A DNA stretch of 51,294 nt from Candidatus Omnitrophica bacterium UBA6253 (GTDB taxonomy: Bacteria > Omnitrophota > Gorgyraeia > Gygaellales > Profunditerraquicolaceae). Location of the stretch: the NCBI GenBank assembly GCA_002441245.1, contig DJVP01000011.1, forward strand, positions 1 to 51,294, in the 5' to 3' direction. The position numbers were made by a program, and so were the translations under genes. Below the pieces are notes generated by a model. That model saw only the letters and a list, made by a program, of their open reading frames with translations. It ran no database searches and had not been told where the DNA came from. Positions 1 to 27,270 of the stretch are shown in pieces; positions within the stretch are counted from its first letter, which is position 1; each line of letters opens with the position of its first letter.

Positions 1-3000
1 AGGGTACAATTACCGGCGTTACAACAACAGCAGGTACATTAACTAGCGTATCCGGGACTCCGGTAAATTATGCCGCAGGAGCCACGACACAATACGTATT
101 TAATTTTATGCCTGCTAATGATGTTGCGGTAGGGGGGTATTTAAAGATAGAATTTAATTCTGAATACAGTTTAACTGGTGCCTATCTTATCAGCCCTTCA
201 GCTAAGTATAGTATATCCAGCAAGACAGGTAATATCATAATTCTTAATGTCCTTGAGCAGGCATTAGCTTCCAGTTCCCAGAGCATAAGTATTGGAGGTA
301 TAGTTAACCCCGGTCGGGAGAAGACGGGTATCAAATTTACATTAACTACGCTTACATCCGGCAGCGCAGTTATAGATACTGCCCAGTCAGCAGCTATAAA
401 TATAACCACAGGTTTATTAACTTCAGCTTCTGTCAATGCCAGTACTTATACAACTTATGATTTAGCCACATATACATTCAGCTTTACTACTGTTAATGCT
501 TTGGATGTAGGCGGGAAGGTAGAAATAACCTTTGATGCGGATTATGATGTGTCTGGGGCAGTGTTTACATACGGCAATGACGGTTCTGCGCTTTCGGTGT
601 CAGGCCGCGTGGTTACTATTACCTTGGGGACAGCAATACCCAAACAGGAAAGCGTAAGCCTGGCTATATCTGAAATCAGGAATCCAGGTGTTCAATCTAC
701 AGACAGCTATTCTATAGTGACTAAGGATTCTACGGATGTAAAGGTAGATACCGGAACAATCTCCGGCAAAGTAATCACTGGCGGTAGCATGAGCGCTACT
801 TCTGTGGTTGCCGGATCAACACAGCCAGCAGTAAGTACCAGCTATACGTTTGCTTTCACCCCTGACCATGTGATCCCCGCCAGTGGTTATGTTAAGATAG
901 TTTTCGATAGCGATTATGTTTTAGATTATACTTCTGTACAGACAGCAGGTTATGCCTCGAATGCAGGGCCTGGATACGTACTTTTAACTAACACAAGCGG
1001 AGATGATTTAAGCGGCGCGCGTACTATAGTGCTGCTTAATGTCAAGAATCCTTCGTCTGTTGAAGAGCCGACGGATAATTTTTATCTTACGACTATGACC
1101 CAGAATCAGGATACTATAGATACTAAGAGTATTACTGGTATTACCATGACGCCAAGCCCGATAACTGTTTCGTCTATTTCAACCGTTTCAACAGAGGTTT
1201 CCGCGCTTACTTCATATACCATAAGAATAACACCAATCCATACGATACCGATAGGCGGCAAGGTACTGATTACCTTTGATAGTGATTACAATTTAACCAA
1301 TATTGGCTCCGGGGATGTGTCAGGCAATAGCTCCACTGCCTCTGTAAGCGGCAGCACCTTGACGGTTACTTTAGGCGAAATAGCATCCCAGGGGAGCGTG
1401 CTTACTTTAATAGTCTCAAATGTACAAAATCCTTCATATGTGCAGACAACAGATGAATTTTCGGTAATAACTAAGGATGCCTCCGGAGGTAAATTAGACT
1501 CTGGAAATATAACCGGGGTTACGATGACCGAAGGCCAGTTGACTGGTTTATCGGCAACGCCTGCGGATACTACTTTGGATGCCACTACTAATTATCTGTT
1601 CCAGTTTACCCCTGAGCATACCATACCTTTAAATGGTTATGTAAAAATAAGCTTTGATGCTGATTTTAACCTAAGCGACGCCTATAGCGGTAACAGCAGC
1701 TATTCTGTTATCTCGATAGGTAGCGGTTATATTCTACTTAAAGCTTTAGCCGAGAAATCAACTGCGCAAAGTTTGCAGATTCTTAATATCAGGAACCCCT
1801 CATACGTACAAACAACAGACGTGTTCTCTATTACTACACAGAATACTAATCAGAAGAATATCGATACAGGAAACGCTGCTGGCATTACTACTACGGCAGG
1901 GCTATTGGCCGTTAACTCGGTCAGCCAGGTTTCTACGCAAGCCGGAGCCACTACAAGTTATACCTTTGTTTTTACTACTGTCCACGCTGTTGCCGCCGGC
2001 GGAAAAGTTGAAATAACCTTTGATTCAGATTACGTCCTGACTTCTGTAACCGCTTATAATGTATCCGGAATCGCCAATTCTACTGTAGCTGTAAGCGGGA
2101 ATAAATTAATCGTGACTACGGGGGCGGAAGTTTCCGCAGGGGCACAGGTATCATTAATTATTTCTAATATCAAGAACCCGGCGTATGTGCAGACAACAGG
2201 AGCCTTTATGATAGATACTAAGAATTCTTCAGGAGGCATATTGGATAGTGGCTCTATAGCCGGAATAAATATTACAGCAGGATCTTTATCGTCTGTTTCA
2301 GTTACGCCGGTTTCTACTGAAGTGGCTAAGAGTACGGATTATACATTTGCTTTTACCGCTGAACATAGCCTGCCTTCAGGAGGTTATGTGCAGATACAGT
2401 TTGATTCCGCTTATGATTTAACTACGGCCATAGTTTTAACATCGGGGTATTCGTTGATAACCAGGGGTAGCGATTATCTTAGGTTGCAATCTTCCGATGA
2501 GAATTCGGGTTCCGTCAGTATCGCGCTCAGAAATATAATTAACCCTCATTATGTAACAACAACTTCAGCCTTTACCATAATTACACAAACAACCGGTGGC
2601 GATACAATTGATATGGGTACATGCAACGGTGTTACAACTACAGCTGCATCTTTAATAAGCGCATCTGCAAGCGCTGCCTTAAGCGAGGTGAGTGCTCAAG
2701 GCGAATATACCTTTGTTATTACTCCTCAGCACGATATACCCGTAAATGGTAAAATCAGGATAACTTTTGATAGTGATTATAATGTTAGTGAAGTGGGGAC
2801 AGGAGATGCCGCCTGTAGCGGCGGCAGCGCAACAGTGCAGGTGAGCGCTAAGACCTTGATCCTAACGTTGGGTTATGAGTTAGCTGGCGGTACAGAAGAA
2901 GGTATAGTAATCTCCAAGATAAAAAATCCTTCTTTTGTGCAGACTACATCCAACTTTGCTATACAGACAAGAGATGACCAGGATAGGATAATTAACCAGG

Positions 3001-6000
3001 GTAGTGCTTCCGGCATTGCGATAACCGCTGGCACCATGACCGCAGTATCGGTAAGCGCCGATTCACTTGTAGCAGGATATACGACAAATTATACGTTTAA
3101 TTTTACTCCCAGCCATGCTGTTAATGCAGGAGGGTATGTTGTAATAGATTTTGATTCTGCTTACGATGCCTCTTCAGGTTATGTAGTCAGCCCGCTTAGT
3201 ACATTCAGTTTAGTATCCAGGTCAGCCAATAAGATAACCCTTAATACATTAGAGGTATTGCCAGCCGGTACAGCACAAACTGTGGTTATTGGTACTATTG
3301 TCAACCCCGGCTCTGTAAAACAAGTTACCTTTAATATTGCCACACAGAATTCTACTCAGAATACTGTAGATTCGGTTGTTTCTCCTGCCATAAGTACGCA
3401 GGCAGCTCCTATGGCGGCTATCTCCTTAACCGCGTCCAACTTAGTTGCTTTAGATACCAGCACATATACCTTTGGTTTTACTACCGTTAACTCAATAGAT
3501 GTTGGTGGTAAGATTGAAATTACATTTGATGCTGAATATGATTTGACCCAGGCTACATATACCTCAGGTTTGATAGGCGGTTCAACCTCGCTGGTTGCGA
3601 CAATGGCCTTAAGCGGCAGCAAGTTAATATTAACCACAAATACAGCAGTTGGCACGCAAAAGAGTGTTTCAGTAGTTCTCTCGAATATCAAGAATCCGGG
3701 TGTTCAAATAGTAGATAATTTTGCCATGCTTACCAAAGATTCAACGGGTAGAGAGCTCGATCAGGGTAGTGCATCGGGAGTTAGTATAATAGCCGGATCC
3801 CTGACCGGGCTATCAGTGGCCGCAGATTCAACAGAGATAAGCAAGAGCGCAACCTATAGTTTTAGTTTTACGGTAGCCCACAGTGTTCCGGTTGATGGCT
3901 ATGTAAAACTGTCATTTGACAATGAATATTCGTTTACTAATGCCAATGTCTTAAGCGCAGGTTACGTGATAGTGGATAGGCAGAGTACTTTTATCCTTCT
4001 TAAGAGAAGCGCTCAACTTATAGGGTCAAATACTCTACAGTTGAGTAATATAGTAAATCCGTCTTATGTCCAGACAACGGATCCCTTTGTTATTACGACC
4101 CAGCTTAGTGATAATAAAGTGATAGATACCGGAACCACGCAAAGTGTCAGTATTACTCCCGGTATTTTGACGCAGACATCCGCAGTTGCAGTTAACCCGC
4201 TGATAAGCGCAACCAGTGTTTACAATTTTAGCTTTGTAACATCGCATGCTATAGAAACAGGCGGCAAGGTGGTAATTACTCTTGACGATGATTACGATCT
4301 AAGCCTGGTATCCGTAGGTTCCCAGGATGTCTCGGGTACCGGCACCCCTGCCATTGAATCAGTAGACGGGAAGAAAATAAATATACTTCTTTCTTCCGGA
4401 GTTGCGGCTGCTGCGACCGTTTCATTGAGTATCTCTGATATTAATAACCCGGCTTATGTACAGACAACATCTTCTTTCCTGTTGCAGACTAAGACTGCCT
4501 CAGGGGCAGTTAAGGATGAGGGGGCAGCTACGGGAATAACAACTACAGCCGGCGCATTAACCGGCATCACTATAGCGCCAGGCAGCTCAATAGCAGGTGC
4601 CAGGACAGATTATACTTTTACTTTTACGCCGGCCCATCAGGTAGGGCAATATGGTTATTTGAGGATTGATTTAAATTCGCAATATGATGCGAATATCGCT
4701 TATGTAATATCTCCGACTGCGACATTTGAAATATCCGAGAAGTCTGCTAACTATGTTGTGGTTAAGACATTGTCTGCTTTGGCAGCCGGTACGGCATATA
4801 CCCTTAGGCTGGGCAGTATTGATAACCCCGGCCGCTCAATGGATGTGACATTCACCTTGACTACCAAGACTTCATCCGGTTCTACAATAGATACAGGTAT
4901 TAGCTCAACCCTGCATATAACGCCTGCACCTATGCAGTCAGCTTCTATTTCGGCAAACAGCTTAGTTGCTACTCAGATAACTACCTATACCGTGAGTTTT
5001 GTCCCTATTAATGCGATAGAGGCAGGTGGCAGAGTTGAAATTACTTTTGATGCAGATTATGTCCTCACCGGAGTTAATAGCGTAACAGGTTATGATGCCA
5101 GTATAGCGGTAGCCGATAATGTTTTGATTATTACCTTGAATACTGGATTAGAAGCAGGCGCAGCCTGTTCTTTTACAATTCCAAACATTAAGAATCCGGG
5201 GGCGCAGACAACGGATGCCTATTCATTGGTTACTAAAGATTCCACGAGCACATCTTTGGATGAAGGCACGATCGCCGGGAAAGTTATTACTGCCGGTTCA
5301 TTAAGCAGTCTTTCTGTTTCTGCTATGTCGTATGAAGTAATGGGTACGAGTGAGAGTACCACCTATACTTTTAGTTTTACCTGCCAGAACGCCATCCCTG
5401 TTAATGGGTATATTAAAATAGGTTTTGACGCGGATTATTCCTTGGACAACGCGGTTAATCAGAGCGCGCAATATTTAATATCTTCTAAGGGGGCGGATTA
5501 CCTGTTAATTAAAACCACTCAGGAGCGTACGGGAGCCTGTACTATACAATTAAGCGGCATAAGGAATCCATCTTATGTGCAGACGACAAATAACTTTACA
5601 GTAGCCACGCAATTGCCCGCGCAGCAAAACATTGACGTTGGCACAATTGGCGGCATTACCACTACAGCAGGCTCATTGAGCGGGCTTTCAGTAACAACAA
5701 CTAATTCCAAGATAGCTGAGTCAGCTGTATATACCTTTAACTTTACGGCTGAGCATGCCATCGCGGTGGGCGGTAAAGTAGCCATATCTTTAGATTCTGA
5801 TTATAATCTTACATCGGTTAGTTCCACGGATGTATCCGGCAATACGGGTTCGACTGTTGCAGTAAGCGGGGCAGATCTGGTGATTACCTTGGGTGAACAG
5901 GTGTTTGCTTTGGATAGCGTGTCATTGACAGTATCTAATATAGTTAACCCCTCATACGTTAAGACTTCAGCTGATTTTATCTTTAAGACCAAAAATCCTG

Positions 6001-7565
6001 AAAATGGATTAATAGATGAAGGTGTTGCCTCCGGTGTAACTTTTGAACCGGGTATTTTAGAAGCTGTAAACGTCAGCGCAACCAACCTGCAGGTAAATTC
6101 ACAATCAACTTATACCTTTACCTTTACGCCTGCGCATGCTATACCCAGCGGCGGGTATATCAAGATAGACCTGGATAATGATTTTAACATAGACGGGGCT
6201 TACTTATACCTGGTATCCGGTTATTCCTTTGAGAAGAATCTGACTGATATTTATTTTACTCTGCAGCCAAACAGCGCCAAGCCGGCAGGTACGCCTTTAA
6301 CGATATCTATAGCAGGTATTATTAACCCTCCATATGGACAGATTACGGATGATTTTACAATTAACACGCAGGCGGTTAACCAGAGCGGTATTGATTCCGG
6401 GACGGTTTCCGGGGTTGAGATTACTGCAGGGCAGCTTTCAGGGGTTTCTGTGTCAGCAGCAGGAAATAATTATGTGGTTGGCGAGCAGACGAGTTACACT
6501 GTTTCCTTTACTACCGTAAATGCTATAGATGCTGGCGGTAAGGTTAAGATAACCTTTGATGCCGATTATGGTTTTGCCTTAGATGGCACTGTATCAGGAA
6601 ATTCTGGAGCAACAGTTGCAGTAAGCGGTAATATCGTTACTGTAACTTTAGGAGAGGCAGTTGCGGCCAATCAAGCCGTCAGCTTAACTATGGGGGTTTT
6701 AACTAATCCCGGATATGCGCAAACAACAGAAGAATTTTCCATAAAAACATATGATGCCGCGGATAATGCCTTGGATTCAGGTAAGGCTTCAGGCCGGGAT
6801 ATTACTATAGGAGCTTTGACCGGTTTAGCCGTGAGTTCCAGTTCATTGAGCGTGCTTAATGCAGATACAAAATTAACATTTAATTTTAACGCTGCTCATA
6901 CGATTCCGCGCGATGGTTTTATTAAGATTGCCCTGGATAGTGATTATAGTATAGTTTCGCCTTACATTAAGAGTTCTACCGGGGCCAACCTGACATTGCT
7001 TACGGCTGCGGGTAGCCAGGATGGCTATCTTTTGTTTAAATTAAATGCAGCAGCGACGGGGGCAATGAGCGTAGAGGTAGGAGGGCTTACTAATCCGCCT
7101 TATGAGCAAACTACATCGGATTTTGTAGTTACTACTATGTATACCGGCGAACAGAGTATAGATACCGGGACTATTTCAGGACTGGCTATTACTTCCGGCG
7201 CCTTGGTTATAAGTTCTGTGAGTTGTTTGGATAATTACGCCGGTGCTACTACTGAATATACCATCGACTTTACCGCAGTCCATAGTATTCCGGTTACAAG
7301 CAAGATTGAAATTGTTTTTGATAGTAACTACGGTTTGACTAATGCCAGCTTGAGCAGCCCGGCAGGGGGATTAACCATTTCGGCAAGTACGCTGAGCATA
7401 TCTTTAGATGCAGGAGCTGCTGTTTCTTCTAATGTAAGCCTGAAGATAGCCGGTATTTTGAATCCAGGCTATTCACAGACAACAGATAGCTTTAAAGTTA
7501 CGGTTAAAAATATCGATGGTAATATCGTAGATAAAGGCGAGCATGCAGGAATCGCTATATTGCCT
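1..7565 (+). repeat. In-frame tandem array of 20 beta-rich modules (121-130 aa each), alternating between two subtypes
   Basis: The conserved Asn-Pro codon pair of the motif I.NP.YVQTT.F falls at nt 306, 681, 1047, 1428, 1794, 2175, 2541, 2925, 3303, 3693, 4056, 4446, 4824, 5193, 5565, 5946, 6324, 6705, 7092 and 7461. All spacings are multiples of 3 (363-390 nt). Each module carries T.YTF.FT..H.IP.GG.V.I.FD.DY followed by ..NP.YVQTT. The copies are divergent at the nucleotide level. Confidence 0.85.
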
Positions 7566-10500
7566 ACCCAGATACAGTTTATAACTCCTGCGGCAGGGGA
7601 TGTTTATTCGGTTGGAGATAGCAGGAGCATTAAATGGCAGGTAACCGGTGGCAATATCTCTAGAACCAGCAGTCATTGGTTAGTGCAGTTTTCCACAGAT
7701 GCTAATTTTACTTCGCCTATAACTGTACATGAAGGATTGGCGAGCGTTGATGGAGATAACAACCTGTATTTCGTATTATCTGTGGATTCAAGTATGCTTT
7801 CAGAGGTTGTTTATTTGCGGGTATCCTGTATTGATAATTTATATACTGATGTTGCAGCAACCTCCGGGCAATTTAGCATAAGGCCTGTTGCTGCCTTTGT
7901 GGGTTTTGTTGCCCCGGCTTCAGCTGTTAAGTGGGCTATCGGCAGCAGTAATACAATAGAATGGTCCACGCAGGGGGCGATCAGTAATAATTTCAAGATT
8001 GAATATTTTGCCGGGAATACATGGACAACGATTTATGAAGAAGGTGTCAGCGGTTCAGCATCAGTTACTAAGGCAGCAGGCGCGCATTGGTACGAAGATG
8101 ATTGGTCTTATTCCTGGACTGTCCCGCAGGCGGCTAACCTGCCTGATTCCGGAGCAGTGATCAGGGTCACCAATTCAGATAACAGTATAGTTACCGGAGT
8201 CAGCGAGGAATTTGAAATAGCCACCGCTTATATTAAAATAACCAGCCCGACCGAGGGGATTACTTGGGTAAGGACTGAAACTAATAATATTACCTGGGAG
8301 GGCCAGGGTGAATCAGGTACGCGCTTTAGCATACAATATTCGGATACTGCCAATGCAATTACTACTGAGCTTTATAATGGTTCAATAGAAAGGACACTCT
8401 CTGAGGGGAAGTGGCTATATAGTTATCCATGGGTATTAAGCGCCGAACTTGAGCCGACTGATACAGCGGCAATAATAATAACTAATCTTGATGATAGCGG
8501 TATTGCCGATACGTCTGCCATATTTAGTGTTAATGCCAGTGGAAAGTTGGAGATAACTGCTCCTGTGGCAGGGGATAAATGGGTTATTGGCGCCAAATAC
8601 ACAATAAAATGGACTTCTGATGGACAGTCTCTTAGCTCCTCATCCATAAGGATTACTTATACGGCAGATGGTGTTGCAGAAACCCTGATTACTAATTCTA
8701 CTTCTAATACCGGAAGCAAAGATTTTACTTGTCCTTCCACCGCCTTAAGCAATGTAAAGGTGCATTTGTATCAAATAAACGGCGACGTAACGGCTGAATC
8801 AGGAGTTTTTAGTTTTGTGGCAGTTCCTTCGCTTCAGTTTGTATCTCCGGTTGCCAATGATAACTGGGTTGCCTCTTTCACTAAAGAAATAAAATGGAGC
8901 GGTGTCGGGGGCGGGCTAACGCAAATGCTGGTGATTAAATATTCAACTGACGGCGGTTCAACGTATCCTAATACAATCTTTAACTACACCACGGATTCTT
9001 ATGAGGAGAAGATTTCGTCTGTAGTTAGCGGTACCGTTACTAATTATACATTGGCCTGGCCGGTACCAATTAATTACAGTAATAACGTGAAGATAAAAAT
9101 CGAAGACATGGGGATAATGCGCCTGGTAAGCGGCTCTTATGTGCCTTTAAGCGTAGTAAGCGGAAAGTTCTCTATAACCGCGCCGTTTGCTACCATTGCC
9201 CAGCCAGCAGGTGGAGAAGGCTGGATAGCTGGTACGGAGCACGATATTATCTGGTCGGAGACAGGGTCTTTAGGTAAAGATATAAAGATAAGTTATTCGG
9301 TTGACGGCGGCTTGACCTATCCTTATGTAATCTTCCAGAATTCCACAGGAGACAGCGCTATATACGACAATTATATAATTCCTGTAAATAGTTCGCTGAG
9401 CTATAAATGGACAGTCCCCAATACTATTTCTACGCAATGCCGTATTAAGATAGAGGGCCTGACAAACAGCGGAAGTGGAACCTCTCTTGCTAATTTCTCG
9501 ATCAAGCTGCCTATTATAACAATAACCTCTCCTGTATCGACAGATTTATGGTCAATTTACGATACCGGCAAGCTGATCAGCTGGACTAATACCGGTAATG
9601 TCAGTGAACATTTAAAAATAGAGTATTTTAAGGATGCATCTACTTCTAAGGTAATATTGGCAGATGTCAACGGCACGGCGACATCTTATAGCTGGGATAT
9701 AACTGAGGATTATAAGAGCTACGTTTCGGATAGCGGCTGGATAAAGATCACTGACTTAAATGCCGAAACAACATTTGGCCAGCCCCTTACTGCGGTATCG
9801 GAGGCGTTTGTGCTATCCTTGCCTGGTTTTGAGATTAATGTACCGGCCAGCCCCTTAATTACCGGCAGTTCCTATAATATAACTTGGCAAGGCATTGGTA
9901 TGTATTCTGAATGCAGCACAGATCCGTCTAATACCATACGTTTAGAGTATGGCGTGGGAGATAATCCTACATGGATTACAATTTCAGCTTCTACCCAAAA
10001 TGACGGCTCATATGAAAATTGGGTAGTTCCTGATAAGCATTCCAGCGACGTTAAATTCAGGATTACCAATAATACATGGTCATTTATTACGGGGATTTCG
10101 GAACCATTCAAGATCATGGGTTCACTCTCCATTACCAGCCCCGCTGCCGGGACAAAACTTTTCGTAGGACAAGAGCAGATGATGGAGTGGAGCACTAATG
10201 GTACGATTAACAAGGTAAATTTGTATTATTCAAAGAATAACGGCTCTACCTGGAATGCCATAGCTACAGATACTACTAATAACGGGTATTATATGTGGAC
10301 GATTCCCGACGCAGTATTAGTTGACCGTTCTCCTAACAGCAGTGTTTATTTTAAGGTAGAGGATGCTACGGATTCGGCGGTGTATATCAATAGGCAATAT
10401 ACAATAAGTTATTATAAAGTTACCTGGAATGTTATTGATGCCGACGGCCTGGTAGGCGATTTGGATGGTTTAAGTGTCAATACATTAGATGTAACTAATA

Positions 10501-12668: not shown

Positions 12669-12760
12669 GGGGGTTAGATTAATTGCCTCAATCTGCAGGC
12701 GTTTATGCAATAAAGATGCATTTTGGTTTTTAAGAAAAGAAAGGGGGCGTTCCTAAAATA

Positions 12761-14629: not shown

Positions 14630-14838
14630 AAAACTTAACGATTATCCTGATAATGTTGATCAGTACCTTAGGCCCGTCGGCGGTAATCGCGGCGGTAGGT
14701 TTTTCCGGGGTTAAGGCCATTGGCAGGAATCCTTCAGCAGCACCCAAGATTTTAATTTCCATGGTACTGGCATTTATTTTTGCTGAAGCCATAGCCGTAA
14801 TCGGGCTTTTGGTCGTATATAATTTATTCGGACAGTAA
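14626..14838 (+). CDS. atpE: F-type ATPase subunit c (proteolipid)
   Basis: This 70-aa two-helix hairpin has a GRNPS polar loop (R-N/Q-P type) and a membrane-embedded carboxylate in FAEAIAVIGLLV. Its ATG overlaps the GGDEF stop codon (ATGA). Confidence 0.8.
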   Translation: MKNLTIILIMLISTLGPSAVIAAVGFSGVKAIGRNPSAAPKILISMVLAFIFAEAIAVIGLLVVYNLFGQ

Positions 14839-19569: not shown

Positions 19570-21294
19570 ATGTTAATTAAAATAGGGCAGATGCTGATTA
19601 ATAAGAAATTGATTACGCCTGAGCAGTTAGAGGCAGCTCTTGCCGAACAAGGTAAAACCGGTGAGCTTTTAGGGGTTATCCTGGTTAAAAAGGGTTTTTT
19701 GAGCCAGGAGGATTTCTTAAAAGTACTTTCTGAGCAGTTTAATGTGCCTTTTATAAAGTTAAAGGAAACCGCTATTGATCCTTTAGCGATAAAGAAAGTA
19801 CCCGCCAAGTTCGCCTGGTATTATAAAGTTATGCCGGTTAAATTTGTAGATAATAAATTGCTTATTGCTTCTTCTGACCCCTTGCGTTCTCTGGATGATC
19901 TGAGAATATTCTTAGGTTATGATTTGAAGCCGGCCCTGGCTTCGGAATCAGAAATAATGGAAATGATCAAGGAGAATTACGGGGTAGGCGCTGAGACTGT
20001 AGAGGGGATCATTGCTAAAGCGCCCAAAGATACCAAGGGGCAGGATGCGCCAAAAGAAACAGGCAAGATTGAGGATATAGAGAAATTAGCCGAAGATGCC
20101 TCAGTAGTCAAGTTGGTAAACCAGATAATTCTGGAGGCTTATCAGAAGAGGGCAACCGATATCCATATTGAGCCATTCCGGGGTAAGATGAATATAAGAT
20201 ACCGTATTGACGGCGTTCTTTACAACGCAAATGTTCCGGCTGATATCGAGCGGTTTTTCCTGGCGATTATTTCGCGTATAAAGATAATGTCCAGGTTGAA
20301 TATTGTAGAACGCCGACTTCCTCAGGATGGCCGCGCTGTGATAAAAATTGGGCAGGAGGAACTGGATTTAAGAATTTCGATTATCCCCACGCGTTACGGT
20401 GAGGGTATGGTTATAAGGATCCTTCCCATGAGTATGCTTTTTAGCCTGGAGCGGCTTGGCTTGGTCCCTGAGGATTTAGAGATTTTGGCAAAATTAATCA
20501 AGAAGCCCCACGGCATAATCCTGGTTACCGGGCCGACGGGAAGCGGCAAGAGCACTACGTTGTATGGGTGTTTGAATGATATAAAAAGCAGCAAGAATAA
20601 GATAATTACTATTGAAGACCCTATAGAATATGAACTGGAGGGTATAATTCAAATCCAGGTCATTCCGGAAATAGGGTTTACTTTTGCTCAAGGCTTAAGA
20701 AGTATATTAAGGCATGATCCGGATATTATGATGGTAGGAGAGATCAGGGATTTTGAGACCGCGGAGCTGGCAATAAGGAGTGCGTTAACCGGGCATTTGG
20801 TTTTTTCCACCCTGCACACAAATGACGCTGCCGGGGCGGTTGCCCGCCTGTTAAATATAGGTATTGAGCCATACCTGGTAGCTTCTTCCGTAGAGGCATT
20901 CATCGCCCAGAGGTTGGTGCGCTTAATCTGCCCGGAATGCAAAAAGATAGATACGGCGATACCGGATAATGTCAGGTCGTTAATAAGCCAGGATATAGCC
21001 AAGAGCAAAACAGATTTAAAACATTTAAAACCTGAAGAGATTAAATTTTACAAGGGGCAGGGCTGTAAGGAATGCAATTTTACCGGTTATAAAGGCAGGA
21101 CTGCAATCCATGAAATACTGGTAGTAGATAAGCTGATAAGAGAGTTGATGTTGAGGAAGGCATCAACCGATGAATTAAGGGATAAGGCGGTCAGTCAGGG
21201 AATGAAGACTTTGCGTTTATGCGGGTGGAAGAAGGTTATCGACGGCCTGACTACTCCCGAAGAGATATTGAGGGTAACCCAGGCAGAGGAGTAA
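19570..21294 (+). CDS. gspE: Type II secretion / type IV pilus assembly ATPase (GspE/PilB family) with an MshEN-like N-terminal domain
   Basis: Walker A is GPTGSGKST. The motifs IMMVGEIRD and FSTLHTND are present. The tetracysteine cluster reads CPECKK...CKECNFTGYKGR. The N-terminus is LITPEQLEAALAEQ...LLGVILVKKGFLSQEDFLKVLSEQ. Confidence 0.9.
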   Translation: MLIKIGQMLINKKLITPEQLEAALAEQGKTGELLGVILVKKGFLSQEDFLKVLSEQFNVPFIKLKETAIDPLAIKKVPAKFAWYYKVMPVKFVDNKLLIASSDPLRSLDDLRIFLGYDLKPALASESEIMEMIKENYGVGAETVEGIIAKAPKDTKGQDAPKETGKIEDIEKLAEDASVVKLVNQIILEAYQKRATDIHIEPFRGKMNIRYRIDGVLYNANVPADIERFFLAIISRIKIMSRLNIVERRLPQDGRAVIKIGQEELDLRISIIPTRYGEGMVIRILPMSMLFSLERLGLVPEDLEILAKLIKKPHGIILVTGPTGSGKSTTLYGCLNDIKSSKNKIITIEDPIEYELEGIIQIQVIPEIGFTFAQGLRSILRHDPDIMMVGEIRDFETAELAIRSALTGHLVFSTLHTNDAAGAVARLLNIGIEPYLVASSVEAFIAQRLVRLICPECKKIDTAIPDNVRSLISQDIAKSKTDLKHLKPEEIKFYKGQGCKECNFTGYKGRTAIHEILVVDKLIRELMLRKASTDELRDKAVSQGMKTLRLCGWKKVIDGLTTPEEILRVTQAEE

Positions 21295-21301: not shown

Positions 21302-21541
21302 ATGTTTAAGGTATCGGTGCTGGATATAAAGACAGCTTCGACTATATTCCAGGAGTTAGTTTCTTCTGTTATACTGCCTGGTGACGAAGGCGAGCTTTCT
21401 ATATTAGATTTTCATCAACCGATCATCTCTTGTTTAAAAGAGGGTATGATTAAAATAGATAATATCCCGCCTGTGGTTATCAAGAGTGGCATTGCAAGCA
21501 TGCAGGATAATGAACTGGTAGTATTGGTGGAGAAAAAATAA
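21302..21541 (+). CDS. atpC: F1 ATPase epsilon-like protein: N-terminal beta-sandwich domain only (79 aa)
   Basis: VSVLDIKTASTIFQELVSSVILPGDEGELSILDFHQPIISCLKEGMIKI aligns by eye with the epsilon consensus (..G.EGE[LF]GIL.GH.P.......G...I). No C-terminal helical hairpin is present. The gene starts 7 nt after the gspE stop and ends 1 nt before the gspF start. Confidence 0.65.
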   Translation: MFKVSVLDIKTASTIFQELVSSVILPGDEGELSILDFHQPIISCLKEGMIKIDNIPPVVIKSGIASMQDNELVVLVEKK

Positions 21542-21542: not shown

Positions 21543-22790
21543 ATGCCAATATTTGTTTATCAAGCAAAAAAAGGTCCTCAGGAAGTTATCGAAGGGACTG
21601 TCGATGCCGCAACCAAAGAAGCGGCTGTGAATAAGATAGAGAATATGGGTTATGTGCCTATCCGGGTTAATCTTGAAAAAGAGCCTAATGTTGGTGCTGC
21701 CGGAAAACTGCCAGGAGACAAAAATGCCGCTGTTGGGCATTTGGGGCTGTTTGAAAGGGTTGGTTCCCGTGACTTAAATGTATTTACTGAACAACTGGCT
21801 ACCTTGGTTAAGTCTAAGGTACCGCTTTTTGAAGCTATAAATATTCTTTCTTCTCAGACGGATAATCCCAGGCTTAAAATGATAATAACTTCTATATCCG
21901 GTGAATTAAAAGACGGTAAAACCTTGTCGGAGGCATTAAGTAGATACCCCCAGGTTTTTCCTTTGCTATATGTTAATATGGTCCGTTCAGGAGAAACAGG
22001 CGGTGTTTTAGATGAGACCTTGACCCGGCTGGCTAAATTCCGTGAAGAACAAGAAGAGGTAAGGGCAAATATCAGTTCAGCCCTGGCATATCCGATCTTT
22101 ATAACAGTAGTAGGTTTGATTACCGTTATTATCCTGCTTACCTTTGGTATTCCGCGTTTAGTTTCTATGTTCAGCGAAACCAAGCAAGCCCTGCCTTTGC
22201 CTACCAGGATCTTGATTTCAATAAGTAGCGGAATCAGGAATTATTGGTATTTAGGGATTACATTTATAGCCCTGGTAATCTTTATCCTGCAACAAAAACA
22301 GGTAGCTAAGAAAAAAAAGGCTATTCTTGAAAAGATTATATTAAGGTTGCCCTTAATCGGAAATTTTAGCAAAAAGGCTATGCTGGGGGAGTTTACCCGG
22401 ACTTTTGCTTTACTCCTGGCTAATGGGGTTCCGGTACTTGAGGCCCTTCAGATAACAGTGCCGACAATAAATAATGAAGTATTTAAACTGGAGCTGGAAA
22501 AGGTACATAGCGACCTTATTGTGGGTACTCCTCTTTCTCAGAGCATGAGAAAATCCAGCTGGTTCCCGCCATTTCTGACCAATATGATAGCGGTAGGCGA
22601 AAGAGGAGGGAATCTTCAAGATGTATTATTGGAGGTGGCAGTTTTTTATGAGCGCGAAGTAAGAAAAATAAATAAAATAATGACCTCTTTACTTGAACCA
22701 GCGATAATCTTAGTTATGGGTTTAGTAGTAGGGTTTATTGTCATAGCGATGCTCCTGCCTATTTTTGAGATAAATATGGCGGTGCAATAA
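21543..22790 (+). CDS. gspF: T2SS/T4P inner-membrane platform protein (GspF/PilC family)
   Basis: This is a 415-aa protein with a duplicated GspF domain. The motifs LATLVKSKVPLFEAINIL, VNMVRSGETGGVLDETL and NMIAVGERGGNLQDVL are present, along with three TM segments. Confidence 0.9.
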   Translation: MPIFVYQAKKGPQEVIEGTVDAATKEAAVNKIENMGYVPIRVNLEKEPNVGAAGKLPGDKNAAVGHLGLFERVGSRDLNVFTEQLATLVKSKVPLFEAINILSSQTDNPRLKMIITSISGELKDGKTLSEALSRYPQVFPLLYVNMVRSGETGGVLDETLTRLAKFREEQEEVRANISSALAYPIFITVVGLITVIILLTFGIPRLVSMFSETKQALPLPTRILISISSGIRNYWYLGITFIALVIFILQQKQVAKKKKAILEKIILRLPLIGNFSKKAMLGEFTRTFALLLANGVPVLEALQITVPTINNEVFKLELEKVHSDLIVGTPLSQSMRKSSWFPPFLTNMIAVGERGGNLQDVLLEVAVFYEREVRKINKIMTSLLEPAIILVMGLVVGFIVIAMLLPIFEINMAVQ

Positions 22791-22805: not shown

Positions 22806-23222
22806 ATGAAGGCAAAAAGTGGCTTTACGCTTATAGAGTTAATGTTGGTAGTTATAATCCTCGGTGTTTTAGCGGCGATGGTAATGCCAAGGCTGTCCGG
22901 ACGCTCAGAGCAGGCAAAGTCCTCAGTGGCTAAGACAGATATCAGCGCTAATATAGCAACTGCCCTGGATCTTTATGAGCTGGATAATGGCAGATACCCG
23001 ACTACAGAGCAGGGGCTTAGCGCATTAGTGACAAAACCGGGGGATCTTTCCGATGGGTCTAATTGGAATGGCCCCTATATTAAAAAGGAACCTAACGATC
23101 CATGGGATAAGGCGTATCAGTATAAATACCCTTCAACGCATGAAGGCCAAGACTATGACTTGTATTCCCTGGGGGCAGACGGCATAGAAAGTGAAGATGA
23201 TATCGGCAACTGGGAAAAGTAA
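22806..23222 (+). CDS. gspG: Major pseudopilin GspG
   Basis: The prepilin leader and cleavage motif reads MKAKSG/FTLIELMLVVIILGVLAAMV. The GspG-type body includes LDLYELDNGRYPTTEQGL, DPWDKAYQY and LYSLGADGIESEDDIGNW. Confidence 0.85.
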   Translation: MKAKSGFTLIELMLVVIILGVLAAMVMPRLSGRSEQAKSSVAKTDISANIATALDLYELDNGRYPTTEQGLSALVTKPGDLSDGSNWNGPYIKKEPNDPWDKAYQYKYPSTHEGQDYDLYSLGADGIESEDDIGNWEK

Positions 23223-23595
23223 AGGTTTTACGTTAATTGAAATAATGATCAGTATATCCATCCTGTCTGTGGGGTTGATTTTTGTGCTTCAAGGGCTCAC
23301 CCAGTGCCTTAGTATTTTGCGTATTTCCCAGAATAATCTGGAAGCAAGTTTGTTGGCTGAGGAGAAGATGGCAGAAGTAGAGATAGCCGCTAAGCAGGAT
23401 AAGACCACATTCTCTAAAGATGCAAGCGGAGAAGAGCAATCCGGTAATATAGAATTTAAATGGCAAATACGATTGACTCCTGACAGTGGATATGAAGATC
23501 TTAATAAGGTCATGGATACTGTTTATTGGAAAGAGGGCAGAAGGAGCGGCGTCAGCGTATTTAATACTTATTTGTTAATCCCGCATGATAAATAG
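23191..23595 (+). CDS. Minor pseudopilin (GspI-like)
   Basis: The leader reads ...GKSKG/FTLIEIMISISILSVGLIF. At 134 aa the size matches GspI. The start is GTG 23191 or ATG 23197, and the gene overlaps the end of gspG. Confidence 0.6.
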   Translation: MKMISATGKSKGFTLIEIMISISILSVGLIFVLQGLTQCLSILRISQNNLEASLLAEEKMAEVEIAAKQDKTTFSKDASGEEQSGNIEFKWQIRLTPDSGYEDLNKVMDTVYWKEGRRSGVSVFNTYLLIPHDK

Positions 23596-24205
23596 AAAGA
23601 ATAATAAAAAGAAGTTCATCATGGGGTTTACCCTGGTTGAACTTATTATCAGCGGGGCAATAATCTTTTTGATTTCTGTAACTGTGTATTCCGTATTTTC
23701 CAGTGGTATTAATGTCTGGAAAAAAGCTAATCAGGCCAAGAGCAAGGGGTATGGTTTAAGACTGATTGCGGATAAGTTGAGTATGGAGCTAAGGAATACT
23801 TTTAAGTTTTCCAGCATTCCGTTTGAGGGCACCGAAGATTCTATTTCTTTTGCTGCCCTTGTCGATAACGGGGTAAGCAGGACCAGCTATTTTATTAATG
23901 AGGATAATGTTTTTTGCCGCAGGCTTCAGAGCTATGCGGATGTTTTTAAGAAGGGCGAGTCCGGTAATTATGATTTACTGTTTTTCGGGGCCAAGAAGTT
24001 AAAGTTTAGCTATTGTTACCTTGATAACGCAACAGGTGATTATGAATGGAAGGATGAGTGGATAAAAGAGGAGCAGGATACTATCCCCCAGGCAGTAAAA
24101 ATAGAGTTGACTTTTGAAGGAAAGCCTGAAGAAGAATTAAAATTTACCAAAACGGTCTTCATCCCTATTGGTACGGGAGAGCAACGGATAGAACTTATAC
24201 AGTAG
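23585..24205 (+). CDS. Minor pseudopilin (GspJ/H-like)
   Basis: A basic leader, MINRKNNKKKFIMG/FTLVELIISGAIIFLISV, precedes a 206-aa protein. The gene overlaps the preceding gene by 11 nt. Confidence 0.5.
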   Translation: MINRKNNKKKFIMGFTLVELIISGAIIFLISVTVYSVFSSGINVWKKANQAKSKGYGLRLIADKLSMELRNTFKFSSIPFEGTEDSISFAALVDNGVSRTSYFINEDNVFCRRLQSYADVFKKGESGNYDLLFFGAKKLKFSYCYLDNATGDYEWKDEWIKEEQDTIPQAVKIELTFEGKPEEELKFTKTVFIPIGTGEQRIELIQ

Positions 24206-24215: not shown

Positions 24216-25238
24216 ATGGGAAAAAAGGGCAATCCTGCGCGGGCGAGCATACTGATTATTACTCTTTGGGTCTTAGGTTTTTTGACTGTTTTTGTGGTTA
24301 ACCTTGGATTCATGGTCAGGTCGCAATTGCAATTTGCTGATCACCTGCAGGATAGGATGAAAATGTATTATCTGGCCCGGGCAGGCATAGAAAGGGTGGT
24401 TGCTGAATTAAGTAATGATGAGACCGAAAGCTATGATTCCTTTAATGAGTCATGGGCGAATAATGAGGAGTTTTTCAAGGATGCAGTTTTTGGGGGAGGA
24501 TTTATAACTCTTAGCTACCATCCCGGGGACCAAGAAGGCGATGAAGGAGAGATGACATTATATGGGGCAATGGATGAAAGCAGTAAAATAGATATAAATA
24601 ATGCGCCCCAGGATATATTAATAACATTACTGGAGCGTATTGGCAAGGTAGAGGCAGAAGAGGCAATAGATATTTCCGGGGCAATCCTTGATTGGAGAGA
24701 TAAAGATGTAGCTGTTTCGACAGGAGGGGCCGAAGACGGATATTACCAGGGGTTATCTTCTCCCTATGAATGCAAAGATGGAAAATTTCAAATACCGGAA
24801 GAATTATTACTGGTTAAGGGCATGACCCTTGAGATCTTTTCCGAGATCAAGGATGTAATTACTGTTTATGATACAGAAAAGGTTAATATTAATACCGCAA
24901 GTTTTGACTGTTTATACGCTTTAGGCCTAAACAGAAGCCTTTGTGAACAGATAATTAAATTCCGCCAGGGTAGTGATGGATTGAGCGGCACCGAGGATGA
25001 TTTTATTTTTAAAACCCCCTCGGCATTAATGAGCATAGGCTCCTTGTTTACCGAGGAAGCCACACAAATAAATACTTTGATCTCCAGGAATATACTTACA
25101 GTAAGATCGGATATTTTCAGGATTAATTCTCTGGGGCAGCTAAAAAATGCAAGGGGGACGCGTTCCAGGGAGATTGTTTGTGTGTTAAAGCGCCAAAAAA
25201 ACAAGGGTGCGAAAATATTATATTGGCATGAAAATTAA
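24216..25238 (+). CDS. gspK: Minor pseudopilin GspK-like
   Basis: The N-terminal hydrophobic helix ASILIITLWVLGFLTVFV has no F/E prepilin pair. The motifs ESSKIDINNAP and EKVNINTAS (GspK-type KININ.A) are present, and the size is 340 aa. Confidence 0.7.
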   Translation: MGKKGNPARASILIITLWVLGFLTVFVVNLGFMVRSQLQFADHLQDRMKMYYLARAGIERVVAELSNDETESYDSFNESWANNEEFFKDAVFGGGFITLSYHPGDQEGDEGEMTLYGAMDESSKIDINNAPQDILITLLERIGKVEAEEAIDISGAILDWRDKDVAVSTGGAEDGYYQGLSSPYECKDGKFQIPEELLLVKGMTLEIFSEIKDVITVYDTEKVNINTASFDCLYALGLNRSLCEQIIKFRQGSDGLSGTEDDFIFKTPSALMSIGSLFTEEATQINTLISRNILTVRSDIFRINSLGQLKNARGTRSREIVCVLKRQKNKGAKILYWHEN

Positions 25239-26730
25239 TTTAACGAAATTATTCCAAAAGCAAGAGAAGGTAACAACTGTTGTCCAGATAGACAATAACT
25301 GGTTGAAATTAATCCAGGTAAAAGAGCTCAAGCGGGAGAAGAAGGTCTCCATGATCAAGGTTGCGGAGATTAGTTCTTTGTCCGACGAAGATATCACGCT
25401 TAAGATTTCTAATCTGGCTTCGGAGTTAAAGATAAATTCGCATTATCTCATTCTTTCTATACCGCGGCATCTAACAACCACCAGGAATCTTGATTTGCCT
25501 TCCGCAAACCCGCTTGAGATAAAAGATATGATTGAGCTTCAGATTGGCAAACAAACACCCTATGCCAGCGACGAGGTGATTAAAGATTATCAGATTTTAG
25601 GCAGCAATGCAGATGGGTACAGCAGGGTGCTTTTGGTTATTGTGCACCGGGATATTGTGGGAAGGTATTTTAAAATACTGGAATCAGCGGGACTTAAGGT
25701 GCAAAAGGTGAGTTTTAGCTCTGAGGGATTATTAAATTGGAGGAGCCTGGTTTACCGGGAAAAGGTCTCAGGCGAGAAAGTGCATATATTGATTGATGTT
25801 GATTATGATACAAGTGACTTTGAGGTTGTGCTGAATGATAAACTGGTTTTTGGCAGGAGTATCTCCTTGGGTTTCTCCCAGCTTCCCGGGCAAATAGAAC
25901 AGTGGCAGAAGAAATTTGTTGAAGAGATAAACCATTCAATTTATGCTTACCAGAATGAAATAATGGGCAAGGAGATCAGCAGGATTATAATAAGCCGTCC
26001 GAGGTTGGTCGGCGATAGCCTGGATAAAAATGTTTTAGAAAGAGAATTTGGTTTACCCGTAGAGATCATAGACCAATTCAAGGATATTCCCCTGACCGAG
26101 GAAGGTACGAATTCTTATAATAATTTGGTTAGGACTGATTTATCGTTTGCCGGATTAATCGGCTTGGGTTTGCCCTCTGGCGAACATAAGATTGACCTTG
26201 TTCCCCAGGAGCATCTGATAGGCAAGGCGGTAAAAGAAAAAGGCAAAGACCTATACATTATGGGCATACTATTGGTGTTTATCTTGGTTGCTGTTTCTGG
26301 TGTTTTCCTGGGGAGGATGTATAATAAAGAACGGTACTTGAGTCAATTAAAACAGCGGCTCGATCAGATCCAGGACAAGACCAAGGAATTAAATGGCATG
26401 ATCCGGGGGATAGAAACAATAAAAGACAGGGTTTATACAAGAGGTACATCGCTTAATCTTTTTTATGAGGTGCACCGGGCGATCTCTCCTGAAATTCATT
26501 TAATTTCGATAAGCTTTGACGGGAAAGAAAACCTTATCTTGCGGGGAGAGTCAAATGAGATGTCCGAGGTTTTTAGCTTTGTTAATAAATTAGAAGAATC
26601 AGCGTATTTTCAGAATGTTAAGTCGAAATACGCCACTAAACGCAAGGTGGGGGATAAAGAAATTACGGATTTTGAAATTTCCTGCCCCTTGCAGGATAAA
26701 TACAAGGTTACGGATAAACACAAATTATAA
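25228..26730 (+). CDS. PilM-PilN fusion (GspL-like): actin-like cytoplasmic domain, TM segment and periplasmic domain
   Basis: An N-terminal domain of roughly 340 aa has PilM-like organisation. It is followed by the TM segment LYIMGILLVFILVAVSGVFLG and a PilN-like coiled-coil/ferredoxin-like tail. ATG 25228 is preferred; the alternative GTG 25207 lies deeper in the gspK overlap. Confidence 0.6.
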   Translation: MKINLTKLFQKQEKVTTVVQIDNNWLKLIQVKELKREKKVSMIKVAEISSLSDEDITLKISNLASELKINSHYLILSIPRHLTTTRNLDLPSANPLEIKDMIELQIGKQTPYASDEVIKDYQILGSNADGYSRVLLVIVHRDIVGRYFKILESAGLKVQKVSFSSEGLLNWRSLVYREKVSGEKVHILIDVDYDTSDFEVVLNDKLVFGRSISLGFSQLPGQIEQWQKKFVEEINHSIYAYQNEIMGKEISRIIISRPRLVGDSLDKNVLEREFGLPVEIIDQFKDIPLTEEGTNSYNNLVRTDLSFAGLIGLGLPSGEHKIDLVPQEHLIGKAVKEKGKDLYIMGILLVFILVAVSGVFLGRMYNKERYLSQLKQRLDQIQDKTKELNGMIRGIETIKDRVYTRGTSLNLFYEVHRAISPEIHLISISFDGKENLILRGESNEMSEVFSFVNKLEESAYFQNVKSKYATKRKVGDKEITDFEISCPLQDKYKVTDKHKL

Positions 26731-26736: not shown

Positions 26737-27270
26737 ATGGAATTCCTGTCCAGGCTATCTAAAAAAGAAAGGCGTTTGTTTTATATCACAGTGGCGGTGG
26801 TGGCCATTGTTTTTCTTGAGAGGGTGGTTTTTAAGCCGGTTATGAATAAGCTGGAAAATTTTAACGGCAAGATATCTTTAGAAGAAAAGAAGCTGGAAAA
26901 GTCAATGCATATTCTGGGGCAGGAATCAGCCATAACCAGCGAATATGAGAAATTTGCTCAAAGCATAAAACAAGAGCAATCCGATGAAGAGACGCTAGCC
27001 ATATTGCTTAGCAGTATTGAGAAGATGGCAAACAGCGTTTCTGTTTTTATCTTGGATATGAAGCCTGGCACAGTAGAGAAAGCCGAGTTTTACAAGAAAT
27101 ATACCGTTAAAATTGAAGCCGAGGCAAAGATCAGTAACTTGACAGATTTTATTTATCAGTTGGAGAATTCTCCGAAATTGCTCAGGGTATCGGATTTTCG
27201 CCTGACCCCCCAGAAAAAAGAGACTGTTCTTAAAATTAGCATGACAGTTACTGAGGTTTTGATTAATTGA
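26737..27270 (+). CDS. PilO/GspM-like bitopic assembly protein
   Basis: This 177-aa protein has a single N-terminal TM segment (LFYITVAVVAIVFL) and a coiled-coil segment. The call rests mainly on its position after PilM-N; sequence evidence is weak. Confidence 0.45.
   Translation: MEFLSRLSKKERRLFYITVAVVAIVFLERVVFKPVMNKLENFNGKISLEEKKLEKSMHILGQESAITSEYEKFAQSIKQEQSDEETLAILLSSIEKMANSVSVFILDMKPGTVEKAEFYKKYTVKIEAEAKISNLTDFIYQLENSPKLLRVSDFRLTPQKKETVLKISMTVTEVLIN

Follow-up and report, generated by a model that had tools for sequence, protein, structure and literature searches.

Omnitrophota are abundant, ultra-small and mostly uncultured bacteria that are thought to be epibiotic predators or parasites, and how they attach to their hosts and act on them is obscure. 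We analyzed 51,294 nucleotides (nt) of contig DJVP01000011.1, from a metagenome-assembled genome (MAG) of Candidatus Omnitrophota; this whole stretch is referred to as the window. The first 27,270 nt carry a giant repeat protein with a C-terminal membrane anchor, a secreted metallopeptidase, a diguanylate cyclase, a divergent F-type ATPase and a set of type-IV-filament genes resembling those of type II secretion systems (T2SSs). These blocks form a neighborhood that is conserved in many relatives, and they may work as one unit. Gene identities were assigned with Pfam and NCBIfam, and the junctions were checked against a table of open reading frames (ORFs). The features of the region are as follows:

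3..7571, plus strand: giant protein, repeat region 1, with the 5' end cut off at the window edge (repeat anchors)
7572..10409, plus strand: giant protein, repeat region 2 (translation and motif scan)
10410..11990, plus strand: giant protein, unique C-terminal region with K/E/S-rich stretches (translation)
11991..12668, plus strand: tail-anchor module fused to the giant protein (alignment A2 and AlphaFold2 (AF2) model)
12760..12777, plus strand: weak terminator-like hairpin, in the 199-nt gap 3' of the giant gene
12868..13653, plus strand: secreted MA-clan metallopeptidase with HEIGH motif (Peptidase_MA_2, PF13485)
13718..14629, plus strand: pseudo-receiver-GGDEF diguanylate cyclase (Pfam Response_reg and GGDEF)
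14626..14838, plus strand: F-type ATPase subunit c, 70 amino acids (aa) (ATP-synt_C, PF00137)
14932..15690, plus strand: subunit b fused to the C-terminal portion of delta (ATP-synt_B, PF00430, and OSCP, PF00213)
15691..17157, plus strand: subunit alpha, with shortened N-terminus (Pfam)
17173..18069, plus strand: subunit gamma (PF00231)
18084..19493, plus strand: subunit beta, of the divergent clade (sequence identity and P-loop)
19570..21294, plus strand: GspE/PilB-type assembly ATPase with N-terminal MshEN domain (PF05157 and T2SSE, PF00437)
21302..21541, plus strand: subunit epsilon, beta-sandwich domain only, 79 aa (ATP-synt_DE_N, PF02823)
21543..22790, plus strand: GspF/PilC platform protein (T2SSF, PF00482)
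22806..23222, plus strand: major pseudopilin GspG (T2SSG, PF08334)
23191..23595, plus strand: minor pseudopilin, GspI-like (N_methyl; weak gspI/XpsI matches)
23585..24205, plus strand: minor pseudopilin, GspJ-like (T2SSJ, PF11612)
24216..25238, plus strand: minor pseudopilin, GspK-like (T2SSK, PF21687)
25207..26730, plus strand: PilM-PilN fusion, GspL-like assembly-platform protein (PF11104 and PF05137)
26737..27270, plus strand: PilO/GspM-like protein (PF04350)

An earlier description made from the letters alone (hereafter the sequence-only reading) had presented these genes as a tightly spaced, co-directional train. The eleven junctions that it listed (199, 64, -4, 93, 0, 15, 14, 76, 7, 1 and 15 nt) are exact when compared with the ORF table, the negative value being the ATGA in which the start of subunit c overlaps the stop of the GGDEF gene. 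The giant repeat protein of more than 4,220 aa was recovered with 4,221 visible codons and a single transmembrane segment at its C-terminus, and it is followed, as described, by a secreted HEXXH peptidase (signal peptide and HEIGH motif) and by a receiver-GGDEF protein, both recognized by Pfam. The single weak hairpin also exists, and is the sole intergenic terminator-like site on the plus strand. The count of six F-ATPase genes was right but their contiguity was not, as epsilon lies between gspE and gspF. Instead of ten T2SS or type IV pilus (T4P)-type genes we counted eight: E, F, G, I-like, J-like, K-like, L-like (PilMN) and M-like (PilO). All genes of the train do share a strand, but so does every gene of the 51 kb, including unrelated housekeeping genes for glycine cleavage, lipoate synthesis, ThyX and an ECF-transporter, and the GC skew is positive across the entire window. 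Co-directionality is therefore uninformative as evidence for an operon. The skew ranges from +0.12 to +0.26 except at 1-6000, inside the giant-gene repeats, where it is near zero, which probably reflects the Thr/Ser/Ala/Val-rich composition of the repeats. Nine contigs, which represent at least six independent assemblies (NCBI genome assemblies in two cases), encode an identical GspE protein in the same gene order, which excludes an assembly artefact.

We examined the conservation of the region with an alignment of 20 beta subunits (A1), by scanning one genome per GTDB species and analyzing the best 80 loci through gene maps based on blastp of their ORFs. In 51 of these loci the beta subunit is 50-93% identical to that of the window, and in the remaining 29 it is ~45-50% identical. 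The latter group is canonical: it is composed of 28 loci from many phyla and of one locus (L063) with ~50% identity and canonical gene order, and it includes five Omnitrophota. Many of the 51 divergent loci are labelled Omnitrophota, Velamenicoccus archaeovorus LiM being one of them, and others are labelled Planctomycetia or Nitrospirota; these labels are probably those of misassigned MAG contigs. Labels of this kind (Methanosarcinales archaeon, Planctomycetia, Nitrospirota, Nitrospiria) are carried by L016 (JAIWAR010000001.1), L014, L018, L019, L022, L023 and others, and the Methanosarcinales label is curious, given that Velamenicoccus preys on Methanosaeta.

The gene gspE follows beta in all 44 divergent species-level loci with downstream sequence, with a response-regulator gene intervening once, and in none of the 29 canonical F-ATPase loci. 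After gspE come gspF, the pseudopilins and PilMN/PilO, in an internal order that varies by lineage. In 22 loci subunit epsilon is encoded ahead of c; the seven loci in which it sits between gspE and gspF correspond to the clade of the window. The genes 3' of PilO are not conserved among relatives. The linkage between beta and gspE is kept while the surroundings shuffle, a pattern that points to selection on the cluster and not to frozen synteny. Two further rearrangements were seen: gamma precedes alpha in L099 (10417-12721), and in V. archaeovorus (L025) an AAA_22 (ExeA-like) gene follows gspK at 20261-21082 and a 23S-IVP-like ORF lies between beta and gspE.

The conservation extends upstream of the ATPase. 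Upstream sequence of 3 kb or more was available for 23 loci; of these, 16 have a homologue of the tail or of the giant protein, 14 have an ORF of at least 1,000 aa (a length that is a lower bound) and 10 have a receiver (REC)-GGDEF gene. In 22 species-level loci a tail gene lies at most two genes 5' of the first ATPase gene, and only an MA-peptidase, a REC-GGDEF gene or both lie between them. In addition, all five look-ups of tail homologues (44-52% identity) returned the order large protein, tail, (peptidase), REC-GGDEF and c, with large proteins of 2,081 aa, at least 1,904 aa, at least 2,788 aa, 2,809 plus 755 aa, and at least 8,736 aa. The sequence-only reading had made its idea of a unit depend on the conservation of gene order in relatives with an orthologue of the giant gene, and the idea survived this comparison (16 of 23 loci and five of five look-ups).

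The giant ORF runs uninterrupted from nt 3 to its stop codon at 12668 (4,221 codons) and, because repeat sequence is present from the first codon, the gene is truncated by the edge of the window. The first repeat region (aa 1-2,520) is composed of ~20 tandem modules of 125 aa, with anchors every 122-130 aa, and the second, which reaches ~aa 3,470, of modules of ~90-110 aa with the signature I.I.SP..G..W..G....I.W...G. The only hydrophobic segment of the protein lies at aa 4172-4201, 20 residues from the C-terminus, and is followed by a K/E-rich tail. On the whole protein Pfam returned only a weak DUF2808 signal, which is sub-threshold per domain. The sequence-only reading had proposed to predict the structure of single repeat modules. 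We modelled one 125-aa module with AF2, using an alignment of the 18 repeats of the window itself, and obtained a confident eight-stranded beta-sandwich with a predicted local distance difference test (pLDDT) score of 88 and a predicted template modelling (TM) score of 0.82. Its matches in the PDB were, however, only generic (CBM2, cohesin and adhesin Ig-like domains, TM ~0.5), and hence no specific ligand can be claimed. Going by this model, repeat fibre seems a fair description of the protein.

Homologues of the unique C-terminal region are confined to Omnitrophota-type contigs. The longest orthologue (L094, at least 8,736 aa) is colinear with the giant protein of the window (48% identity across the two repeat regions, 55% across the unique one), so the giant gene of the window is probably about twice as long as its visible part. 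In L094 the giant gene ends 22 nt before a separate tail gene. The two genes are thus fused in the window and split in L094, and such a fusion/fission pair is classical evidence of proteins that work together. An apparently complete protein of 2,081 aa, encoded 5' of the tail gene in L099 (62-6307), carries a Laminin_G_3 (concanavalin A-like lectin) domain, which indicates that the binding domains of the large partner protein differ between lineages. Two distant homologues (P0007 and P0008, 27% identical), surrounded by sulfatase-maturase and Tat genes and without ATPase or gsp genes, were dropped as counter-evidence to synteny, because their matches fall in different parts of the query and they are not orthologues.

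The tail module corresponds to the last ~225 residues of the giant protein. It comprises a small beta-sandwich and three helices, together with a transmembrane helix and a short tail rich in K and E. Its homologues are mostly separate genes of 240-280 aa (~250), each with its own signal peptide, beta-domain, helical region and C-terminal transmembrane helix. With a signal peptide at one end and a transmembrane helix at the other, these stand-alone proteins are type-I membrane proteins with their bulk outside the cytoplasm. The alignment of the family (A2) has as invariants VNPS, YLP.E, YD, E.DVW, P..HI..YR and W..I...W..Q. We found no Pfam model for the family and no fold match in the PDB at E<=0.001 when the AF2 model of the module (pLDDT 82) was searched; the top matches, Hsp70 substrate-binding domains and Cys-loop receptors at TM ~0.2, were treated as noise. 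A profile search of 1.84 billion representative proteins returned 953 representative clusters, in which the module occurs singly, as two to three tandem copies, or as the C-terminal end of proteins that reach 4,564 aa. With roughly 950 sequence clusters, this previously unnamed module constitutes a new family of tail anchors.

The F-type ATPase belongs to a distinct, fast-evolving clade and departs from the canonical enzyme in several ways. Its beta subunit shares 42-53% identity with 28 canonical betas and 49-99% with members of its own clade, which includes V. archaeovorus LiM, whereas among canonical betas of different phyla the median identity is 65% (MAFFT alignment). The P-loop of divergent betas reads GGAA(C/L)GKS, as opposed to the invariant canonical GGAGVGKTV; the catalytic GER.REG is kept and the DELSEED loop is short of acidic residues. 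Alpha retains the P-loop and SRIGS motifs and has 14 residues before its beta-barrel in the window (clade median 16, canonical median 28). Subunits b and delta are encoded by a single ORF of 233-285 aa across the divergent clade. In the window, PF00430 matches this ORF at aa 7-133 and PF00213 only with its profile positions 103-168 of 172, the C-terminal third of delta. The N-domain of delta and the N-terminus of alpha normally form the stator attachment. Epsilon lacks its C-terminal helices.

The most pronounced difference concerns subunit a, which forms the proton half-channels and bears an essential Arg. In a search that covered the fetched loci and the window, a profile of 12 sequences from canonical loci, including the LSLRL..N arginine motif, matched 21 canonical-set loci and had no match in the 51-kb window or in any of the 51 divergent loci. 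Subunit a adjoins c in every canonical operon whose upstream region lies in the fetched stretch, those of Omnitrophota included. Compared with a canonical F1Fo, the locus therefore contains the catalytic motifs of alpha and beta, gamma, epsilon and the carboxylate of c (a Glu conserved in 30 of 32 clade members), but neither an operon-encoded subunit a nor a full-length delta with the N-domain that binds the N-termini of alpha. To judge from the retained motifs, it is very likely that the complex still turns over ATP and has kept its c-ring. The dedicated energy role that the sequence-only reading proposed for it is putative. In the available part of the KEGG orthologue (KO) table of Seymour 2023 (Nat Microbiol, PMC10066038), one genome has the alpha and beta KOs, zero KOs for a, b and c, and the membrane subunits of a V/A-type ATPase; this single case (n=1) fits a role other than housekeeping.

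The genes next to the ATPase provide a concrete basis for a link to cyclic di-GMP (c-di-GMP). The cyclase keeps GGEEF and the RxxD I-site, both expected of a PleD/WspR-type enzyme, but its receiver lacks the phospho-acceptor Asp, which is replaced by Glu in all 13 orthologues (window plus 12). It is thus a pseudo-receiver, probably not controlled by ordinary phosphotransfer. At its N-terminus (aa 4-56), GspE matches the curated MshE-type model NF053729 (c-di-GMP_motif) with 66.4 bits, over a cutoff of 38. The consensus of the MshEN domain is a 24-residue motif, RLGxx(L/V/I)(L/V/I)xxG(L/V/I)(L/V/I)xxxxLxxxLxxQ, present twice with five residues in between, and GspE has the corresponding tandem: motif 1 is KIGQMLINKKLITPEQLEAALAEQ, the 5-aa spacer is GKTGE and motif 2 is LLGVILVKKGFLSQEDFLKVLSEQ. 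The domain is recognizable despite two deviating positions. The second-messenger control proposed by the sequence-only reading thus gains predicted molecular partners, a cyclase with its active and inhibitory sites and an assembly ATPase that scores above the curated cutoff. As to the peptidase, it matches Peptidase_MA_2 (PF13485) with 33.9 bits against a cutoff of 32.4, and has a signal peptide and HEIGH at aa 132. MA-peptidases were found in 14 related loci, either 5' of the ATPase or between gspF and gspG, the latter position in four lineages.

Among the filament genes, T2SS models are the best family matches of all but the PilM-PilN fusion (E, F, G, I, J, K, M). The core of a T2SS (E, F, G, minor pseudopilins, L and M) is complete if PilM plus PilN and PilO are taken as replacing L and M. 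GspG scores 162 bits with TIGR01710 (cutoff 88.85) and is the only gsp match over its equivalog cutoff; GspF (TIGR02120, 369 bits, cutoff 424), the GspK-like protein (NF037980, 76 bits) and the PilO/GspM-like protein (NF040576, 40.9 bits) remain under theirs. The region does not have the hallmarks of a type IVa pilus (T4aP): its major subunit matches GspG and not PilA, and PilT, PilP and PilQ are absent from the window. Searching the unassigned downstream ORFs of eight relatives returned a secretin inside the cluster in one of them (L057, 11831-13462) and unrelated housekeeping genes in the other seven. The honest label is that of a T2SS-like type-IV-filament machine with unassigned output.

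With moderate confidence, we favor the reading that the region is an instance of the 'symbiotic F-type ATPase / type-IV-filament' locus of Omnitrophota, complete with the upstream surface module, and that it encodes a c-di-GMP-switched host-attachment apparatus served by an ATPase without subunit a. The giant protein would be exported and held at the cytoplasmic membrane by the tail module, from where it would extend as a long adhesive fibre towards the host or prey cell. The cyclase would produce c-di-GMP, whose binding to the MshEN N-domain of GspE would lead to polymerization of a pseudopilus on the GspF/L/M platform. The peptidase may be either a cargo of the pseudopilus machine or a processing enzyme for the fibre. 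The ATPase would act as an ATP-driven membrane motor or as a local energizer of the apparatus, not as a normal proton-coupled synthase, and this is the least certain step of the proposed mechanism.

Several observations weigh against this reading. The giant and tail genes do not adjoin the ATPase in seven of the 23 loci with enough upstream sequence, including V. archaeovorus; in Velamenicoccus-type and several other loci the ATPase is preceded by the cyclase or by nothing. The fibre is hence a frequent and not an obligatory partner, which narrows the claim of the sequence-only reading for one functional unit to the conserved multi-block neighborhood. In some relatives mobile or toxin-antitoxin genes split the giant, tail and cyclase genes, and such insertions between blocks mean that co-transcription is not obligatory; in the window itself, the terminator-like hairpin and the 199-nt gap lie 3' of the giant gene. 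No secretin GspD, GspC or prepilin peptidase GspO was present among the window ORFs scanned against Pfam, and the retraction ATPase PilT, PilP, PilQ and a PilA-type pilin are equally absent from the window. Without a secretin in the cluster or window, the passage of a filament or of a protein of more than 4,000 aa through the outer membrane is unexplained. The first MshEN motif of GspE deviates from the consensus twice, as K replaces the R of position 1 and the G of position 10. Finally, the conservation of the c-subunit Glu in 30 of 32 members indicates that ion binding still matters and that a partner resembling subunit a may be encoded elsewhere.

The insertions mentioned above are HepT/MNT toxin-antitoxin pairs, a Y1 transposase, a GIY-YIG protein and an Avd/23S-IVP-like protein (L093 11318-13465 and 9404-9757; L096 6595-7530; L098 8415-8705), and the junctions between giant, tail and cyclase genes appear to be hot-spots for them.

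One alternative is that the complex is an ordinary ion-translocating F1Fo synthase or pump, whose subunit-a gene lies elsewhere in the genome and which is merely co-regulated with the pilus genes. It is a serious possibility, though in our view an unlikely one. Subunit a is absent from all 51 loci of the clade, yet lies beside c in canonical operons; the delta N-domain and the matching N-terminus of alpha are both reduced, and the P-loop and DELSEED loop of beta are altered. Moreover, Seymour et al. split 'respiratory' from 'symbiotic' ATPase clades, and the single KO-table genome has alpha and beta without a, b and c, along with V/A-type subunits. An ordinary enzyme would nevertheless agree with the retained catalytic residues of alpha and beta, with the presence of gamma and epsilon and with the c carboxylate. 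The best PDB matches of the ATPase subunits are also canonical F1 subunits (430-478 bits), and a 2026 preprint (bioRxiv 10.64898/2026.06.07.730766) reports that, of 176 complete Omnitrophota genomes, 125 contain alpha and beta.

It can also be argued that the gsp genes are a classical secretion system and not an attachment pilus. The system would export the MA-peptidase, and perhaps the giant protein as well, across the outer membrane by way of a secretin whose gene lies elsewhere. The T2SS-type best models, a GspG above its equivalog cutoff, the signal peptide of the peptidase and its position between gspF and gspG in four lineages, and the secretin within the L057 cluster all point in this direction. 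We doubt this explanation, since neither GspC, GspD nor prepilin peptidase occurs in the cluster or window, most gsp matches fall under their curated cutoffs, and the giant protein is tethered to the membrane, unlike a released T2SS substrate. In addition, TXSScan-based work described in Seymour 2023 classed such clusters as T4aP.

A bolder variant of the favored reading is quite improbable in our opinion. The ATPase without subunit a would be an ATP-driven rotary motor that no longer serves bioenergetics and is mechanically coupled, within the membrane, to the giant fibre, to the pseudopilus platform or to both, via the strictly conserved transmembrane helix of the tail (W..I...W..Q) or via GspF/GspL. 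The tail module would then be a new core subunit that replaces subunit a beside the c-ring, and the whole a diderm counterpart of the leg-and-motor machine of Mycoplasma mobile, with which the cell would pull on its host or move over it.

Least probable of all, and hardly credible to us, is that an adhesin, a peptidase, a housekeeping ATP synthase with a regulator and a T2SS are adjacent through strand bias and inherited order alone: the placement of all 51-kb genes on the plus strand, unrelated housekeeping included, the hairpin and 199-nt gap after the giant gene, the 76-nt gap before gspE and the insertions in relatives would suit independent neighbors, but beta and gspE stay together in 44 of 44 loci that are otherwise rearranged and whose betas are 49-60% identical (0 of 29 in canonical loci), epsilon and the peptidase switch blocks yet stay within the cluster, giant and tail genes undergo fusion and fission, and the lack of conservation 3' of PilO is not what simply frozen synteny would give.

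Two hallmarks of the phylum that had been reported apart, giant proteins and an odd ATPase beside pilus genes, belong to one conserved neighborhood in many lineages. The neighborhood also provides a parts list, made of a tail-anchor family, an MA-peptidase, a pseudo-receiver cyclase and a putative c-di-GMP-sensing assembly ATPase, and it sharpens the question of the role of an F-type ATPase that has a c-ring but no subunit a.

Outside the region, tight spacing goes on beyond 27270 as far as 30337: a PabB-like gene comes after 25 nt, and then the genes of a histidine kinase and of a response regulator. In this segment (27296-30337), the PabB-like chorismate-binding gene, the PAS-HisKA-HATPase protein, which has a degenerate C-terminal GGDEF-like region, and the response regulator are separated by gaps of 25-82 nt and are kept only in the two closest relatives (L013 and L014). 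A perfect sigma-70 consensus (TTGACA, 16 nt, TG-TATAAT) lies at 30388-30415, in the 357-nt gap before a DEAD-box helicase gene, and is the first strong and clearest transcription-unit boundary of the region. Further downstream on the plus strand are the gene of an OprB-family porin and a complete glycine-cleavage plus lipoate ligase/synthase block (33888-35258 and 37415-43354); the porin implies a cell envelope with an outer membrane. A second GspE/PilB-type ATPase (49201-50856), with an MshEN motif barely over the NF053729 cutoff (38.8 bits), is encoded at the right edge of the window, directly 3' of a PAS histidine kinase and a single-domain response regulator (46221-48677 and 48815-49186). 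This paralogue may head another filament cluster past the window edge.

When compared to known systems, the ATPase block resembles the canonical F1Fo operon (atpIBEFHAGDC) in the order c-b-(delta)-alpha-gamma-beta, in its catalytic motifs and in the c-ring carboxylate. It differs in that the locus has no subunit a, delta is reduced and fused to b, alpha is trimmed, epsilon is short and gspE is inserted before epsilon.

GspE resembles the c-di-GMP-regulated MshE/PilB-type ATPases, such as that of the MSHA pilus of Vibrio cholerae, in its N-terminal MshEN domain with tandem 24-residue motifs and a 5-residue gap, and here a diguanylate cyclase is encoded in the same cluster. In Vibrio MshE, the binding of c-di-GMP switches on filament assembly. 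Unlike MshE, GspE has two deviant motif positions, and its binding of c-di-GMP is predicted from sequence.

The gliding machinery of Mycoplasma mobile (G1-ATPase, Gli349 and Gli521), an analogy already drawn by Seymour et al. (PMC10066038), likewise combines an F1-derived ATPase that lacks a normal Fo proton path with membrane-anchored proteins that are several thousand residues long and act on host surfaces. The beta subunit of the window scores 305 bits with the G1-ATPase beta (9io5_A) as compared with 430-463 bits with canonical F1 betas, and it does not have the long N-terminal extension of G1-ATPase beta; no G1 alpha was present among the top 60 PDB matches of alpha. The Omnitrophota cluster keeps c, b-delta, gamma and epsilon, whereas mycoplasma type-2/3 clusters are said to lack Fo subunits, as Beven and colleagues reportedly described in 2012. 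Mycoplasmas have neither type-IV-filament genes in the cluster nor an outer membrane. Membership in the mycoplasma G1/type-2/3 ATPases was rejected on bit scores, which are measures of similarity and not a phylogeny, and on subunit content. Given the lower G1 scores and the retained c, b-delta, gamma and epsilon, we take the mycoplasma system as an analogy and not as a family.

The sequence-only reading had cited giant genes near T2SS-like loci as a precedent, but that literature describes a different locus. In West-Roberts 2023 (bioRxiv 10.1101/2023.11.21.568195), gspD, rcpC and rotamase genes lie 5' of giant genes whose proteins have SecA_DEAD and multiple transmembrane segments, and pilZ genes lie 3'. 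The 2026 preprint (bioRxiv 10.64898/2026.06.07.730766) repeats this association of giant genes and T2SS, and describes an 'incomplete F1F0' in most genomes. The two arrangements share a very large surface-type protein beside type-II/IV-filament genes, c-di-GMP components nearby and the occurrence in Omnitrophota. However, in the window the filament genes are downstream of the giant gene with the ATPase operon in between, the giant gene is followed by a peptidase and not by pilZ, and the visible 4,221 aa of its product lack a SecA domain and contain just one transmembrane helix, at the C-terminus. We therefore rejected the 'Archaeovorin'-type arrangement on the basis of gene order and domain content, the region 5' of the giant gene being outside the window.

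The closest known system is the 'symbiotic F-type ATPase/T4aP locus', reported in every class of Omnitrophota by Seymour 2023 (PMC10066038). There, ATPase and T4aP genes lie within 10 kb of each other in 57 of 66 contigs, including that of V. archaeovorus LiM, which corresponds to our L025. The region belongs to the same phylum and to the same distinct Omnitrophota clade of alpha and beta, and its filament genes also lie within 10 kb, gspE starting 76 nt after beta. Given this co-location, the core of the unit put forward by the sequence-only reading, which did not recognize this precedent, had already been published, and what is added to it is the upstream block with the giant protein. The available sections of Seymour 2023 provide the co-location and a phylogeny of alpha and treat giant ORFs as a separate feature, and they make no mention of a missing subunit a, a b-delta fusion, an interleaved epsilon, an upstream giant/tail/peptidase/cyclase block or MshEN. 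Nor were these five features reported in the other texts that could be searched. The lack of subunit a, observed in the loci of the whole clade, is new here, as is the predicted c-di-GMP-binding MshEN motif of GspE. Tying the giant protein, the tail, the MA-peptidase and the pseudo-receiver GGDEF protein to the ATPase/pilus locus is also new, and represents a real but modest extension of the published core.

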